Sequence record: OK076929.1
Source of the DNA: Escherichia phage vB_EcoM_C2-3
DNA length: 64,000 nt
Reading direction: 5' to 3' (one strand)
The notes beneath the pieces were generated by a model that had not been told where the DNA came from, made no database searches, and was given only the letters and a program-made list of their open reading frames with translations. The translations under genes and the position numbers were made by a program. Shown here piece after piece: positions 1,187 through 8,716 of this stretch. How positions within the stretch are numbered: the first letter of the stretch is position 1; the number at the start of each line of letters is the position of its first letter.

Positions 1187-1262
1187 CGGGGCATAGCTCA
1201 GAAGGAAGAGCAAGGACCTTCTAAGTCCTAGGTCGTAGGTTCGATCCCTACTGCCTCGACCA
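1187..1262 (+). tRNA. tRNA-Arg (anticodon UCU)
   Basis: Acceptor cggggca/tgcctcg, anticodon stem aggac/gtcct with loop ctTCTaa, T-arm ggttcgatccc. Confidence 0.75.
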
Positions 1263-1280
1263 ATTATAAGTGAGGAAAAT

Positions 1281-1631
1281 ATGAAAGGTAATGTTTATTT
1301 AGTAGTTCATGATTTAACATTCTATTTTAATCATAATGATACTGTTATTTCTGAACGTGTAATTAATTTGCTTTATCAGCATGCAGATTATGTTTATGTC
1401 GAAAACGAATATGGTCATTGGCAATTTCTCAAAAATCGTTCATTTGGTTTAGATGGTTACGAATATTTTGATCGTAAAGACCTTTTAGATACAATTCCGT
1501 TATCTACACAATATCAAAATCATAAGTCTTTACATAAATGCCGGCTAATTCGAAATGCTGAATCCGCGTATGAAGCAATTGATTTGTGGCGTAAACGCCG
1601 TGAATATATTGATTCTTTAAAAGAATATTAA
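1281..1631 (+). CDS. hypothetical protein (116 aa) immediately downstream of tRNA-Arg
   Basis: ORF track; GAGG Shine-Dalgarno 8 nt upstream of ATG. Confidence 0.55.
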   Translation: MKGNVYLVVHDLTFYFNHNDTVISERVINLLYQHADYVYVENEYGHWQFLKNRSFGLDGYEYFDRKDLLDTIPLSTQYQNHKSLHKCRLIRNAESAYEAIDLWRKRREYIDSLKEY

Positions 1632-3049: not shown

Positions 3050-3382
3050 ATGAAACGTAACTTTAGTAAAGATTTTTGTAATAGAAATTATTATCCTGAA
3101 GAGCTTTTTGAATCTAAGGACTTTAAAGAGTTTAACGAACGTTCTCAAAACATGCCTGTACAATGGGTGTTAGATTATGCCAAACGTATCTTTGAAGGTG
3201 TACGTTGGTTCAGTCCTGATGATGAAGCCCCATATTTTCAAAGGGCATGGTCTATAGTCAATCAAGCTTATATTGATGCTTTAGAAAATATTAATATTAT
3301 GGATGATGATGCTTTGTTAATCATCGATGAGTCTATTAATAATAGTATCGATAAATTTATTGATGAATTGGACGAAGAATAA
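3050..3382 (+). CDS. hypothetical protein (110 aa)
   Basis: ORF track; GAGGAG SD. Confidence 0.55.
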   Translation: MKRNFSKDFCNRNYYPEELFESKDFKEFNERSQNMPVQWVLDYAKRIFEGVRWFSPDDEAPYFQRAWSIVNQAYIDALENINIMDDDALLIIDESINNSIDKFIDELDEE

Positions 3383-3412
3383 GTTTACAAACTCTTGGGA
3401 GTAGAGTATAAT
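3383..3412 (+). promoter_or_regulatory. early promoter (GTTTAC, 18 bp, TATAAT) with inverted repeat around -10
   Basis: gtttac 3383-3388, tataat 3407-3412, gggagta/tactccc repeat. Confidence 0.5.
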
Positions 3413-3456
3413 ACTCCCACGGATTATAAAACCCTTAATTAACTAAAGGAAATGTT

Positions 3457-4050
3457 ATGAACACACTGAAGAAAATTGTTGAGTTTATTCGCACTAAACT
3501 TGGTTCTGCTATGGCTAAAAATCTATCTGTTGAAGAACAGTATACTGCTGCGGCAGCAAAACTACTTGATAAGATTAAAGATCTAAAAACTGCTTCTGTT
3601 AAATCTATTAATGAAGAAAAGCGTATTCGTGAACTTATTGTCGAAAAGAATAAGCAGGCCGAATCAAAAGAGCGTGAAATTCGCAAGCTTCTTTCGGAAG
3701 GTCAAGATGTAACAATGCATGCTAAACTTGGTTTACTATATCGTCGAACAGCTGAGCAGTTGACTACTAAAGCTGATGGTTATGCTGAAATGCGAATTGA
3801 AATCGCCAAGAAAGTAGTTGAGTTAGATGATGCTCGCCAAGAACTTGCAGTTAAATTGGAATATATCCGTGAAACTCGTGCTGCGAATGCCCTTGGAATT
3901 AGTACTGCTGATGATGTAGTTGAAATTGCAGCACTGACTAAAGTTGATATTGAAGATACTCTTGCTCGAGTTGAAACCTTTAATGGCAATATTTCTGGGG
4001 TTGAAACTACCTCTGCTGATGTTCAGGAATACATTAATTCTCTGAAATAA
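3457..4050 (+). CDS. hypothetical coiled-coil protein (197 aa)
   Basis: ORF track; highly charged, heptad-like composition. Confidence 0.55.
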
Positions 4051-4056
4051 TGATAA

Positions 4057-4076
4057 AGGGGCTTCGGCCCCTATTA
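4057..4076 (+). terminator. hairpin (ggggc-ttcg-gcccc), weak T-tract
   Basis: UUCG tetraloop stem directly after stop codon; short U-tract. Confidence 0.4.
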
Positions 4077-4092
4077 CTTGGAGTAAATAGGA

Positions 4093-4701
4093 ATGAAAAT
4101 GCAAAGTGATTTCAATTCAATGTTTGAAGAATTCCAAAGACAAGTTGATGTTCCAGACCAATTATTAAATGCTCTTAAACGTATGGCAGAAGGACGTAAT
4201 TATTATTGGGGTTCTTCATATGAAACTGATGAAAGTCTTTCTGGAAGATTTTCTAGAGGTAAAAAGTCTTTAATACGTCCTGGAATACTTATTAACAGTA
4301 TTGAATCAATTCATTTATTAACATGCGATTTTGATGTTGAATTTACTGATTTTGTTTCTCCTGAATGGACAGTATGTTATTTAAACGACGATTATGATTA
4401 TCTTGGCGTTTATAGTTTAAGTGACGCATGGTTTAAACGTAATTTACAAAAGTCAAATTTATTCTATATTGATACTACGGTAAAATTTCAGGGCAAGAAA
4501 TATTTCTTTACTCTTATAGTTGATTCTGAAACGAAGCATGAAAATAAACGTATTCTTAGTAAAAAGAATATCTTAACTATTGTTGATGATCTTTTTGATA
4601 AATTCGTAGAAAATCCCAATTTTGAAAGCGATTTATTACTAGAAAAATTTGTTAAGGAATGTAGAGAATATGTCAAAACCATCACTATACCTTCCAAGTA
4701 A
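4093..4701 (+). CDS. hypothetical protein (202 aa), first member of tandem family ending in FVKECR motif
   Basis: ORF track; C-terminal KFVKECREY motif shared with next three ORFs. Confidence 0.55.
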   Translation: MKMQSDFNSMFEEFQRQVDVPDQLLNALKRMAEGRNYYWGSSYETDESLSGRFSRGKKSLIRPGILINSIESIHLLTCDFDVEFTDFVSPEWTVCYLNDDYDYLGVYSLSDAWFKRNLQKSNLFYIDTTVKFQGKKYFFTLIVDSETKHENKRILSKKNILTIVDDLFDKFVENPNFESDLLLEKFVKECREYVKTITIPSK

Positions 4702-6328: not shown

Positions 6329-6859
<531 letters not shown>

Positions 6860-6863
6860 AGTT

Positions 6864-6894
6864 GTTTACTTTCTCCTAGAATTGTGATAGTATA
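6864..6894 (+). promoter_or_regulatory. early promoter upstream of denV
   Basis: gtttac 6864-6869, tagtat -10 about 18 bp downstream. Confidence 0.45.
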
Positions 6895-6918: not shown

Positions 6919-7335
6919 ATGACTCGTATTAATTTGACTTTAGTATCTGAACTTGCTGATCAACATTTAATCGCAGAATACCGTGAATTGCCGCGTGTTT
7001 TTGGTATAGTTCGTAAGCATGTGGCAAACGGTAAGCGCGTTAAAGATTTTAAAATATCTTCTAAATTTATTTTAGGTTCTGGTCATGTTACTTTCTTTTA
7101 CGATAAGTTAGAATTTTTGCGAAAGCGTCAATCGGACATTATAACGGAATGCTTAAAACGCGGGTTCAGTATAAAAGATACTGAAGTTCCTGACATCAGC
7201 GATATTCCAGTAGAATGGAAAAATGATTATAATCCATGCAAATCAGCTATTAAGTTGAGTCAACAACGACTCGATGAAAAAATTTTAATGAAGCCACACT
7301 GGTATAAGTATTACGGCAAAAATATTTACATTTAA
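6919..7335 (+). CDS. denV: endonuclease V (pyrimidine dimer DNA glycosylase)
   Basis: 138 aa, recognised as T4 endo V ([29 protein letters not shown]...). Confidence 0.9.
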
Positions 7336-7481
7336 ATAACATGGGAATAACCTGGACCTCATGATTCTGTGAGGGATTCCCGCCAACCTGTAATAAGGTC
7401 GAGCCCAAGTGCGGTAATGGGTAAATACAGAAATGGACAATTCATGCGCCATGGAATGGCCCAAACCTAGAGAGAACAAAA

Positions 7482-8021
7482 ATGAGAACATTTTTAACTG
7501 GTCCTTATCTATCCCTGATGAATGCTTTTACACACCATTCTGATGCTAGAGTAGAAGAAATTTGTAAAAACGAATATATCCCGCCATTTGAAGACTTACT
7601 TAAACAGTATTGTACACTTCGACTAGATGGTGGGCGTCAATCTGGTAAATCAACTGCAGTAACTAATTTTGCCGCTAATTGGTTGTATGACGGTGGAACA
7701 GTTATTGTTCTTTCTAATACTTCAGCTTACGCTAAAATTTCCGCAGATAATATTAAAAAGGAATTTTCGCGTTATTCTAATGATGATATACGTTTTCGTT
7801 TATTTACTGATTCTGTGCGCAGTTTTATTGGTAATAAAGGAAGCAAGTTCAGAGGTTTATCACTTTCGCGAATTTTGTATATAATTGATGAGCCTGTCAA
7901 ATCTCCTGATATGGATAAGATTTATAGTGTCCATATTGACACTGTACACTGCTGCTGTAATATTAAATGTTGCATTGGTGGTATTACTCGTCCACAGTTT
8001 TTCGTAATCGGAATGCAATGA
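7482..8021 (+). CDS. hypothetical P-loop protein (179 aa)
   Basis: Walker A-like GGRQSGKST; Cys-rich C-terminus. Confidence 0.5.
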   Translation: MRTFLTGPYLSLMNAFTHHSDARVEEICKNEYIPPFEDLLKQYCTLRLDGGRQSGKSTAVTNFAANWLYDGGTVIVLSNTSAYAKISADNIKKEFSRYSNDDIRFRLFTDSVRSFIGNKGSKFRGLSLSRILYIIDEPVKSPDMDKIYSVHIDTVHCCCNIKCCIGGITRPQFFVIGMQ

Positions 8022-8353: not shown

Positions 8354-8716
8354 ATGAAAGCATATCAAATTCTTGAAGGCACACATAAAGGTACTATTTA
8401 TTTTGAAGATGGTATTCAAGCACGAATTATTGTCTCTAAAACCTTTAAAGAGGACTCTTTTGTAGACCCAGAAATTTTCTATGGTTTGCATGCCCGTGAA
8501 ATTGAAATTGAGCAACAGCCTACAGTTAAAATTGAAGGTGGTCAACACCTGAACGTTAACGTTCTGCGTCGTGAAACTCTGGAAGATGCAGTTAAGCATC
8601 CGGAAAAATATCCGCAGCTGACCATCCGTGTATCCGGTTATGCAGTTCGCTTTAACTCTCTGACTCCGGAACAGCAGCGCGACGTTATCGCTCGTACCTT
8701 CACCGAGAGTTTGTAA
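8354..8716 (+). CDS. autonomous glycyl-radical cofactor (GrcA/YfiD-like spare-part protein)
   Basis: C-terminal 60 aa carry glycyl-radical motif [13 protein letters not shown] and match enterobacterial GrcA/PFL C-terminus; 3' half has host-like codon usage. Confidence 0.75.

Follow-up and report, generated by a model that had tools for sequence, protein, structure and literature searches.

What does the gap between denV and vs.8 encode in Escherichia phage vB_EcoM_C2-3? The window analyzed here, 64,000 nucleotides (nt) of record OK076929.1, is DNA of a T4-like phage (Tequatrovirus), in which a spacer of 146 nt separates the denV stop (7335) from the vs.8 ATG (7482). An initial annotation, made from the letters alone, had described this gap as GC-rich, dense in hairpins, and free of open reading frames (ORFs), and it had offered three explanations: a small RNA, a processing site for RegB, or the remnant of a mobile element. 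On balance, we favor the first and propose that the plus strand of the spacer encodes a structured non-coding RNA of ~120 nt (roughly 7343-7462), which belongs to an undescribed, phage-restricted family and would act in trans as a free-standing binder or decoy.

The core of the spacer recurs in unrelated groups of phages

The GC-rich gap with inverted repeats between the two genes is real as described. Its G+C content is 47.2% at 7340-7481 and 50% at 7343-7462, compared to a mean of 34.4% (standard deviation, 4.8%) for the window, which puts the element at the 98.7th percentile among stretches of the same size. The transfer RNA (tRNA) cluster (251-1292) is among the islands of equal GC-richness, as is the region of RNA D and RNA C (~1632-1860); both encode known stable RNAs. 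A scan of the spacer found no sigma-70-type promoter and no intrinsic terminator, as the initial annotation had stated.

The annotation had also proposed searching for the element elsewhere, and a blastn comparison of the 146-nt spacer with 50,697 phage records returned 1118 matching records that were not confined to close relatives. Outside Tequatrovirus, only the middle of the query was kept, namely, positions 48-127 in other T4-like genera and positions 44-88 in phages of ~138 kb (Vequintavirus) and in a 44.9-kb coliphage. The sequence shared by these phages, hereafter the core, reads ACCUGURNNAAGGUCGAGCC-N5-GCGGUAA-N-G and lies at 7382-7422 of the window (plus strand). For T4, the Vequintavirus pangalan, coliphage Ivi, and Klebsiella phage KPV15, look-ups of the records showed that the match falls between genes, in DNA without annotation, and has the orientation of the genes. 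A further ~60 loci came from pattern scans of IMG/VR and metagenomes, with ~40 IMG/VR contigs carrying the motif. A further pattern, GAGCCNAAGNGCGGTAA, yielded mostly chance matches. The carriers of the core include Tequatrovirus, Mosigvirus- and Jiaodavirus-type phages, Karamvirus, Vequintavirus (pangalan), Schitoviridae (the N4-like Klebsiella phage Pylas), Flaumdravirus (Pseudomonas syringae phage KIL1), the 45-kb coliphage Ivi, and several unclassified or environmental contigs. Among virulent phages, at least five groups that are unrelated to one another have nearly the same core, and the element lies on the strand of the neighboring genes in all cases. While the core is nearly invariant, vs.8 proteins are only 37 to 64% identical between T4-like genera.

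The family appears to be restricted to phages. No blastn match was found in 5,426 E. coli genomes at E values up to 1, and the strict core pattern had 0 matches in 185,579 bacterial and archaeal genomes. A relaxed pattern gave 23 bacterial or archaeal matches, ~17 being estimated by chance, and these scored 12 to 23 bits with a covariance model of the element, compared to 35 to 74 bits for real members. The covariance model gave 72.7 bits (E = 8e-21) for the element site in the window and 11.4 bits for the runner-up site.

The element is present once in the window and once per genome elsewhere, except for a degenerate tandem copy in some Karamvirus genomes. The suggestion of a mobile-element remnant found no support, since the element is a single-copy sequence without terminal repeats that is absent from the bacterial and archaeal genomes scanned and is better conserved than its flanking genes. 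A dispersed repeat or mobile cassette, such as the promoter-stem-loop cassettes of T4-type phages or a miniature inverted-repeat transposable element-like sequence, was rejected because there is one copy and no internal promoter.

The degenerate second copies (locus L019, 9131-9183; L102, 473-525; L031, 5089-5141 [minus strand]) are found in Karamvirus-type genomes and lie ~110 nt downstream of the first. In these genomes, the first copy is without the usual 3' domain, and the second resembles the Mosigvirus type with a shortened joiner, which demonstrates tandem duplication and decay. In addition, ~18 records named "Campylobacter phage" (~140 kb, e.g., MG065674.1) match the Vequintavirus form at 94% identity; these look like rV5-like coliphages labeled with another host.

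Compensatory changes support a three-way-junction core

When 57 distinct sequences were anchored on the core and pairing was scored at all upstream and downstream offsets, a single register was prominent. Its first pair is between the base located 2 nt 5' of CCUG and the one right after GGUAA; beyond a skipped G, there are three more pairs. In the window, this closing helix, P1, pairs G7382, C7383, C7384, and A7385 with U7422, G7421, G7420, and U7418, respectively, leaving G7419 as a nearly invariant bulge.

P1 was assessed in a gap-free alignment of 46 distinct sequences. Pair 11-44 was AU in 27 sequences, UA in 8, UG in 6, CG in 4, and GC in 1; pair 10-46 was CG in 32, UA in 7, GC in 5, AU in 1, and GU in 1; neither was ever unpaired. 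Pair 9-47 was CG in 36 sequences, GC in 8, and AU in 1, with a single sequence unpaired. The inner P1 pairs were thus formed in 46, 46, and 45 of the 46 sequences, using five, five, and three pair types, respectively. This covariation was reached by 0 of 500 shuffles, and when the 3' strand was slid by 1 to 3 columns as a control, 24 to 48% of the positions paired, compared to 87% in the true register. At least eight different P1 sequences occur, all of them paired (CCA/UGG, CCCU/AGGG, CUGG/CCAG, CGCG/CGCG, ACUA/UAGU, CACUA/UAGUG, GCA/UGC, and GACA/UGUU).

Inside P1, helix P2 joins A7386-U7389 to A7396-U7399 under a hexaloop, GURNNA (7390-7395). It is followed by the joiner CGA (7400-7402), by P3 (G7403 and C7404 with G7411 and C7412), and by the joiner GGUAA (7413-7417). 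Compensatory changes are found in P2, where KIL1 has CCA...UGG and the second copy in L031 has G...C at the outer pair, and in P3, which is GCC/GGC in one and GUC/GAC in the other of the second copies in L019 and L031. Of the 31 columns of the core, 18 show no variation among the 46 sequences, and the N5 positions vary freely. These alignments identify the functional heart of the element as the 41-nt three-way junction at 7382-7422, which combines a P1 with a bulged G, a P2 with a GURNNA loop, a minimal P3, and the invariant joiners (U)CGA and GGUAA. An alternative pairing in Pylas-type RNAs, CUAACC/GGUUAG, was rejected because it shows no compensation, whereas P1 does. By eye, neither loop-loop covariation between L2 and L3 nor pairing of L3 with the 3' flank was seen in the listed sequences.

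The element begins with a hairpin, P0 (7343-7381, plus strand), that corresponds to the nested inverted repeat of the initial annotation and is exact. Its outer helix pairs GGGAAU (7343-7348) with AUUCCC (7376-7381), its inner helix pairs CCUCAU (7357-7362) with GUGAGG (7369-7374), and the two are separated on the 5' side by an 8-nt internal loop, AACCUGGA (7349-7356). Both helices are also part of the predicted structure of lowest free energy. Compensatory changes occur in P0 even inside Tequatrovirus (CCUUAU/AUAAGG in L091 and GGGAG/CUCCC in L021), and the plan of outer helix, internal loop, and inner hairpin is kept with unrelated sequence in Tequatrovirus, Vequintavirus (GGGG[CAGCCAG]CACAU..AUGUG-A-CCCC), and the L014 group (GGAAC[GUGAGGG]CUACG..CGUAG-G-GUUCC). 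A hairpin was seen by eye directly upstream of P1 in the lineages inspected.

On the 3' side, T4-like phages alone have an extension (7423-7462, plus strand) that contains AAAUGGAC at 7435-7442 and, as had been annotated, a second hairpin at 7448-7460, in which GCC (7448-7450) and GGC (7458-7460) enclose AUGGAAU and are followed by CC. In the alignment, this extension is kept in sequences of Tequatrovirus and of the Mosigvirus, Jiaodavirus, and Karamvirus types, whereas what stands at this place in other phage families is unrelated. The stem at 7448-7460 never varies and is therefore beyond the reach of covariation, and no single consensus fold emerged for the 3' domain of the T4-like versions. 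The remaining nucleotides (7463-7481, plus strand) form a variable linker with the vs.8 ribosome-binding region, in which substitutions and 1- to 2-nt indels are found among close relatives (for example, GAGAACAAAAAUG in the window versus GAGAAGAAAUG in T4). Judging from these differences, this stretch probably marks the 3' limit of the RNA element.

The helices thus stay paired through compensatory changes, the outcome of the covariance check that had been proposed with the initial annotation. We consider it very probable that the element is a selected RNA structure.

The conserved sequence has no common reading frame

The element is followed in the window by vs.8 (7482-8021, plus strand), a 179-amino-acid (aa) ORF that starts at the ATG at 7482 and encodes a P-loop NTPase-like motif. 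The protein has a weak match to AAA_14, and PHROG 1488, a profile of 177 positions, matches its residues 3-179 with an E value of 1e-79. In the T4 RefSeq record (NC_000866.4, 64253-64912; locus L106, 1754-2413), however, vs.8 is 219 aa long, its ATG lies inside P0, and the gene covers most of the element. We asked whether the element codes for protein, either as the N terminus of vs.8 or as a small peptide, such as the 33-aa GTG ORF at 7369-7470. In favor of coding, the frame opened by the ATG within P0 of T4 does continue into vs.8, most sequences have two frames without a stop over the 55-nt core, and several variable positions are third-codon positions of one frame.

The frame that is fused to vs.8 in T4 is fused in T4 only. 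In the window, the ATG in P0 is a GTG, the frame closes at a TAG, and the fusion is disrupted by a 2-nt indel that precedes the real ATG. The window and the other Tequatrovirus sequences alike have a stop in this frame 81 nt from the beginning of the core (51 nt in L021), and the start is GTG, TTG, or missing in several. No start codon is present in this frame in Vequintavirus, Karamvirus, KIL1, L036, L045, and L105; in the second open frame, the start is lacking in most lineages, and L043 has an in-frame TAG. Most lineages are without a start codon in either open frame, and whichever frame is taken, on either strand, between 9 and 46 of the 46 sequences contain stops in it. "ORF-free" was only nearly correct, as the spacer is overlapped by mechanical ORFs of 33, 36, 52, and 68 aa, but none of them is conserved.

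Coding would also leave the paired compensatory changes in P1 unexplained. Given the stops and missing starts and the fit of PHROG 1488 to the 179-aa form, we rejected the N-terminal extension of vs.8; a coding function of any kind is scarcely credible, and the long T4 gene model is probably wrong on sequence grounds. A second annotation touches the element in KIL1 (KU130126.1, locus L109), where the hypothetical gene vB_PsyM_KIL1_0040 (1239-1481, minus strand) runs antisense across it within the tRNA cluster; this is probably a spurious ORF call.

These comparisons also support the suggestion of a small RNA, which is backed by conservation well beyond the T4-like phages, constant co-orientation with neighboring genes, compensatory changes, and the lack of a common reading frame.

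The element is repeatedly found next to tRNA genes

In seven lineages outside the T4-like group (pangalan, L014, Pylas-type contigs, L036, L086, L105, and KIL1), tRNA genes lie on the same strand ~0.03 to 0.9 kb from the element. In L086, L105, and KIL1, the element is flanked on both sides by tRNA or tRNA-like genes, such that tRNA processing would release a small RNA. In Ivi and pangalan, a strong sigma-70 promoter directly follows the element, which argues that the element is not the leader of the next gene there.

In the window, a tRNA cluster (245-1262; 11 tRNAs by ARAGORN and 10 at Rfam gathering scores), the lysozyme gene e (6365-6859), and denV (6919-7335) precede the element. A sequence upstream of denV (6864-6893, plus strand), which consists of GTTTAC (6864-6869), an 18-nt spacer, and TG-A-TAGTAT (6885-6893), is a probable T4-type early promoter that would co-transcribe denV, the element, and vs.8. 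This candidate was judged by comparison with the T4 early-promoter consensus, and the sigma-70 scan did not list it.

Could the element instead be a cis-acting 5' leader of vs.8 that controls how the vs.8 message is translated or how stable it is, in the manner of a riboswitch or protein operator and perhaps with a bound protein or small ligand? All T4-like loci have a vs.8 homologue after the element, the element ends ~20 nt before the vs.8 ribosome-binding site, and a compact junction with invariant unpaired bases is aptamer-like. However, vs.8 homologues follow the element in none of the other loci: in Vequintavirus, Pylas, KIL1, Ivi, and environmental contigs, the core is found without a nearby vs.8 homologue, and a promoter or tRNA genes follow. 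Even in the T4-like KPV15, another ORF lies between the element and vs.8. Neither a terminator nor an anti-Shine-Dalgarno alternative structure is evident. We therefore rejected a riboswitch or cis leader as the general explanation and regard a leader of vs.8 as unlikely. A co-occurring protein partner was rejected on the same distribution, with vs.8 linked to the element in T4-like phages only.

The 3' domain of the T4-like versions (7435-7457 and equivalents) contains two A-N-GGA motifs ~19 nt apart, the second in a hairpin loop, that are kept in all of these versions just upstream of the vs.8 ribosome-binding site. Paired A-N-GGA motifs in such an arrangement resemble CsrA sites and would suit a leader, yet 2 to 3 GGA triplets per 125 nt is about the chance level.

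The tRNA context also bears on a processive antitermination RNA, like that of HK022, which as a nascent transcript would bind the transcribing host RNA polymerase and carry it through terminators or Rho sites in long early operons and in untranslated tRNA or non-coding RNA regions. The carriers are virulent phages, at least some of which use the host polymerase early (T4). Long untranslated tRNA clusters are natural targets of Rho, and the element often opens such a cluster or lies within it. Its extreme conservation would suit a ligand of a conserved host enzyme, and like putL and putR of HK022, it is a phage RNA of ~70 to 120 nt whose fold would suffice, with no phage protein involved, to act on conserved machinery of the host, a mode of action for which putRNA provides the precedent (PMC9378689). 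However, put RNAs consist of two long stem-loops (a V shape with a triplex) of ~70 nt just downstream of early promoters (PMC9378689), whereas the element has no sequence similarity to them, is a three-way junction with a 5' hairpin, and is often placed ahead of promoters or in between tRNA genes. The strong promoter nearest to the element in pangalan and Ivi is downstream rather than upstream of it, and in Pylas and L105, some of the tRNAs are upstream of it. A put-type RNA was rejected on this architecture, and antitermination itself, judged from sequence, seems decidedly improbable.

Two groups of phages have further motifs or repeats around the element. In Vequintavirus-like phages, an 18-nt motif, TAGAGGGCTTGAWAGTGC, follows a short CCC...GGG hairpin just upstream of the element (L002, 2437-2454; L083, 105-122 and 228-245; L089, 4621-4638 and 4745-4762) and is found on both sides of it in one subgroup; it could be a processing or transcription signal. 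In Pylas (MH899585.1, locus L075), the element lies inside an array of modules within a 1-kb ORF-free region after the tRNA cluster (3372-4389). The modules are bracketed by two alternating conserved inverted repeats, GUUGUGRYG...CACAAC and AAGAGCAUUG...CAGUGCUCUU, the second of which resembles boxA. The region also contains an uncalled tRNA-like sequence (~3668-3745) and a weak, sub-threshold match to permuted transfer-messenger RNA (tmRNA) (4016-4103; 33.7 bits), and it may encode several unknown RNAs.

Downstream of vs.8, positions 8354-8716 of the window encode a 120-aa protein with a C-terminal glycyl-radical domain (Pfam Gly_radical, E = 2.5e-18), the known GrcA-like spare part, vs.6 of T4.

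The element matches no known RNA family

Rfam 15 (4227 covariance models) gave only the 10 tRNAs at gathering scores in the window. At E values up to 10, the region 7250-7560 had only a chance SL1 match on the other strand, outside the core, and nothing fell on the element in 10 other diverse members. ARAGORN called no tRNA or tmRNA at 7336-7481 or at the element in the other loci searched. A tRNA-like identity was rejected because GGUCGAGCC resembles a shortened T arm by eye only, its GG being paired within P2.

The proposed RegB processing site was not supported either. The RegB cleavage motif, GGAG, which is usually located in a Shine-Dalgarno region, has 0 occurrences in the spacer (7336-7481), and the core is also found outside the T4-like group, to which regB of T4 belongs, in Vequintavirus, Schitoviridae, Flaumdravirus, and Ivi, genomes in which RegB homologues were not searched for.

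As a self-cleaving ribozyme or a different kind of RNA-processing signal, the element would divide transcripts into segments or free neighboring tRNAs and small RNAs. Small ribozymes are common in phage DNA, and a small junction with ~15 invariant unpaired nucleotides and variable peripheral helices has the usual look of a catalytic core. The element is placed between genes and between tRNAs, and in Pylas-type phages it is enclosed by long conserved stems that resemble excision signals. However, none of the 11 diverse members had an Rfam ribozyme match at E values up to 10, and no conserved candidate cleavage dinucleotide was found. The T4 sequence CCCAAGCGCGGUAAUGGG is similar to part of twister, but the positions concerned (CCCAAGC) are the freely varying N5; on these grounds twister was rejected. 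Judged from sequence, a ribozyme or processing signal appears quite unlikely.

A mimic of a host RNA, such as the rRNA L1 stalk or GTPase center, RNase P RNA, or the Alu domain of the signal recognition particle, was rejected as well: the element has no E. coli match, alignments to 16S and 23S rRNA were at noise level (at most 12 to 14 nt), and the covariance model found nothing in the rrnH operon. Four more specific likenesses also failed. Three of the six positions of the 23S helix 44 loop, GUAAUA, vary in the family; the L1 stalk sequence AAUACCACCC is found in the Vequintavirus 3' domain only; and both the RNase P sequence GUGCGGUAA and the Alu/signal recognition particle sequences CCUGUAAU...AGGCCGAG were dropped because they fall at variable or lineage-specific positions or contradict supported pairings.

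Comparison with characterized RNAs of phages and bacteria

The closest parallels in T4 are RNA C and RNA D (species 1 and 2), which are likewise phage-encoded, non-coding, tRNA-linked, GC-rich islands in an AT-rich genome. RNA C and RNA D are not known to be shared with Vequintavirus, N4-like, and Pseudomonas phages, whereas the element is. Their sequences are also unrelated to the element, the covariance model found nothing there, and the element lies 6 kb from the tRNA cluster in T4-like phages. RNA C and RNA D have been described as small stable RNAs in the tRNA cluster whose function is not known (PMC9697503).

The window itself has an RNA C homologue at ~1750-1832; the published RNA C probe matches 1750-1807 exactly. 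It is part of a GC-rich non-coding stretch after the tRNA cluster (1632-1860), overlapped by a mechanical 42-aa ORF (1704-1832), and RNA D probably lies just upstream of it (~1632-1720). Rfam has no family for RNA C or RNA D.

In anatomy, the element resembles the purine riboswitch and the hammerhead, twister, and twister-sister ribozymes, which also have a closing helix, two hairpins, invariant joiners, and variable peripheral helices. Such an anatomy is typical of ligand-binding or catalytic RNAs. The element differs from these three-way-junction aptamers and ribozymes in that its P1 and P2 are not separated by a joiner, no gene conserved downstream of it points to a riboswitch, and it has no Rfam match at E values up to 10. 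ROOL and GOLLD are also orphan structured RNAs tied to phages and tRNA loci. They are 500 to 800 nt long, come mostly from Firmicutes and related hosts, and are in Rfam, whereas the element is ~100 to 170 nt long, belongs to gammaproteobacterial phages, and has no sequence relationship to them.

Full-text searches on T4 non-coding RNAs and transcriptomics, structured phage RNAs, anti-defense RNA, and put RNA turned up no account of the element, although the IMG/VR RNA catalogue may list the motif anonymously. Fremin et al. (2023) surveyed the phage intergenic regions of IMG/VR for covarying motifs and discussed neither T4-like phages nor the element motif (PMC10690425). Since ~40 IMG/VR contigs carry the motif, it could be an unnamed entry in that catalogue.

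A proposed model for a free-standing phage RNA

According to the model that we propose, the RNA would be synthesized early, within the denV-vs.8 transcript, and in other phages it would be made inside tRNA-cluster transcripts; it would then be cut out or accumulate as a stable RNA. It would act by its shape rather than by antisense pairing, with the invariant single-stranded bases of the junction providing the binding surface for a factor common to enterobacterial and Pseudomonas hosts. A shape-acting RNA directed at a conserved host component is suggested by the invariant unpaired junction bases, the free loops and peripheral helices, the lack of a conserved protein neighbor, and a host range from Enterobacteriaceae to Pseudomonas. 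The partner might be a protein of tRNA or translation metabolism, or a tRNA- or RNA-directed defense nuclease that is titrated by the RNA as a decoy, a guess prompted by the repeated presence of the element inside or beside phage tRNA clusters. We consider the odds that the RNA is a free-standing, trans-acting binder to be about even and a tRNA-related partner to be doubtful.

Several observations weigh against this model. The folding-energy check proposed with the initial annotation came out negative, as the minimum free energy (MFE) was not below that of dinucleotide shuffles on either strand (z = +0.54 and +0.08); the case for an element beyond chance is comparative, not thermodynamic. The covariation-based model has an energy of -18 to -21 kcal/mol, compared to -31.3 kcal/mol for the MFE structure, which pairs the P1/P3 region otherwise; to form, the junction would thus probably depend on a partner or on tertiary contacts. 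P2 (ACCU/AGGU), P3 (GC/GC), and the joiners were largely set by the search patterns, so their invariance arises partly by construction, and the support independent of the patterns comes only from the blastn matches, KIL1, and the degenerate second copies, of which there are three. A distance of 6 kb separates the element from the tRNA cluster in T4-like phages, where vs.8 usually comes right after it, which fits a cis role, and in Ivi, it lies between a terminator-like hairpin and a promoter, an arrangement with no evident source of transcription. Finally, what the sequence comparisons show is the structure and its selection; the expression, ends, and stability of the RNA described here are predictions, and the decoy is a proposal drawn from the genomic neighborhood.

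The thermodynamic result would be expected if the element had no function and were either a group of GC-rich hairpins that arose by chance or what is left of a tRNA gene or mobile element in decay. The degenerate second copies of Karamvirus show that duplication and decay do occur, and the part of T4-like genomes in which the element is located is plastic. However, this explanation is contradicted by a core that is nearly invariant in unrelated phage families and whose helices change in a compensatory manner. The single copy per genome, the absence from bacterial genomes, and the lack of any call at the element by Rfam or the tRNA and tmRNA detectors also argue against it. We thus consider a lack of function highly implausible.

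Implications for T4 and other virulent phages

T4 is the most thoroughly studied phage, yet the element is unannotated or, in the T4 RefSeq record, mis-annotated as coding; T4 itself thus appears to carry a member of an RNA family that has not been described. Our analyses correct the vs.8 gene model and remove a probably spurious ORF from KIL1. That T4-like, rV5-like, N4-like, and Pseudomonas phages have kept the core almost base for base suggests that its target is conserved and common to their hosts. The element might be the founding member of a new class of RNA, a compact three-way junction spread horizontally among unrelated virulent gammaproteobacterial phages, including T4, that functions without any phage protein as a decoy or inhibitor of a host translation factor or of a tRNA- or RNA-directed defense, or else as a new ribozyme or aptamer, although we advance this only tentatively. 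Phage tRNA clusters are now seen as counter-defense loci, and an RNA that accompanies them and needs no protein could serve counter-defense or host takeover as a device made of RNA only. If the element is a ribozyme or aptamer instead, it would represent a new class in a genetically tractable system.

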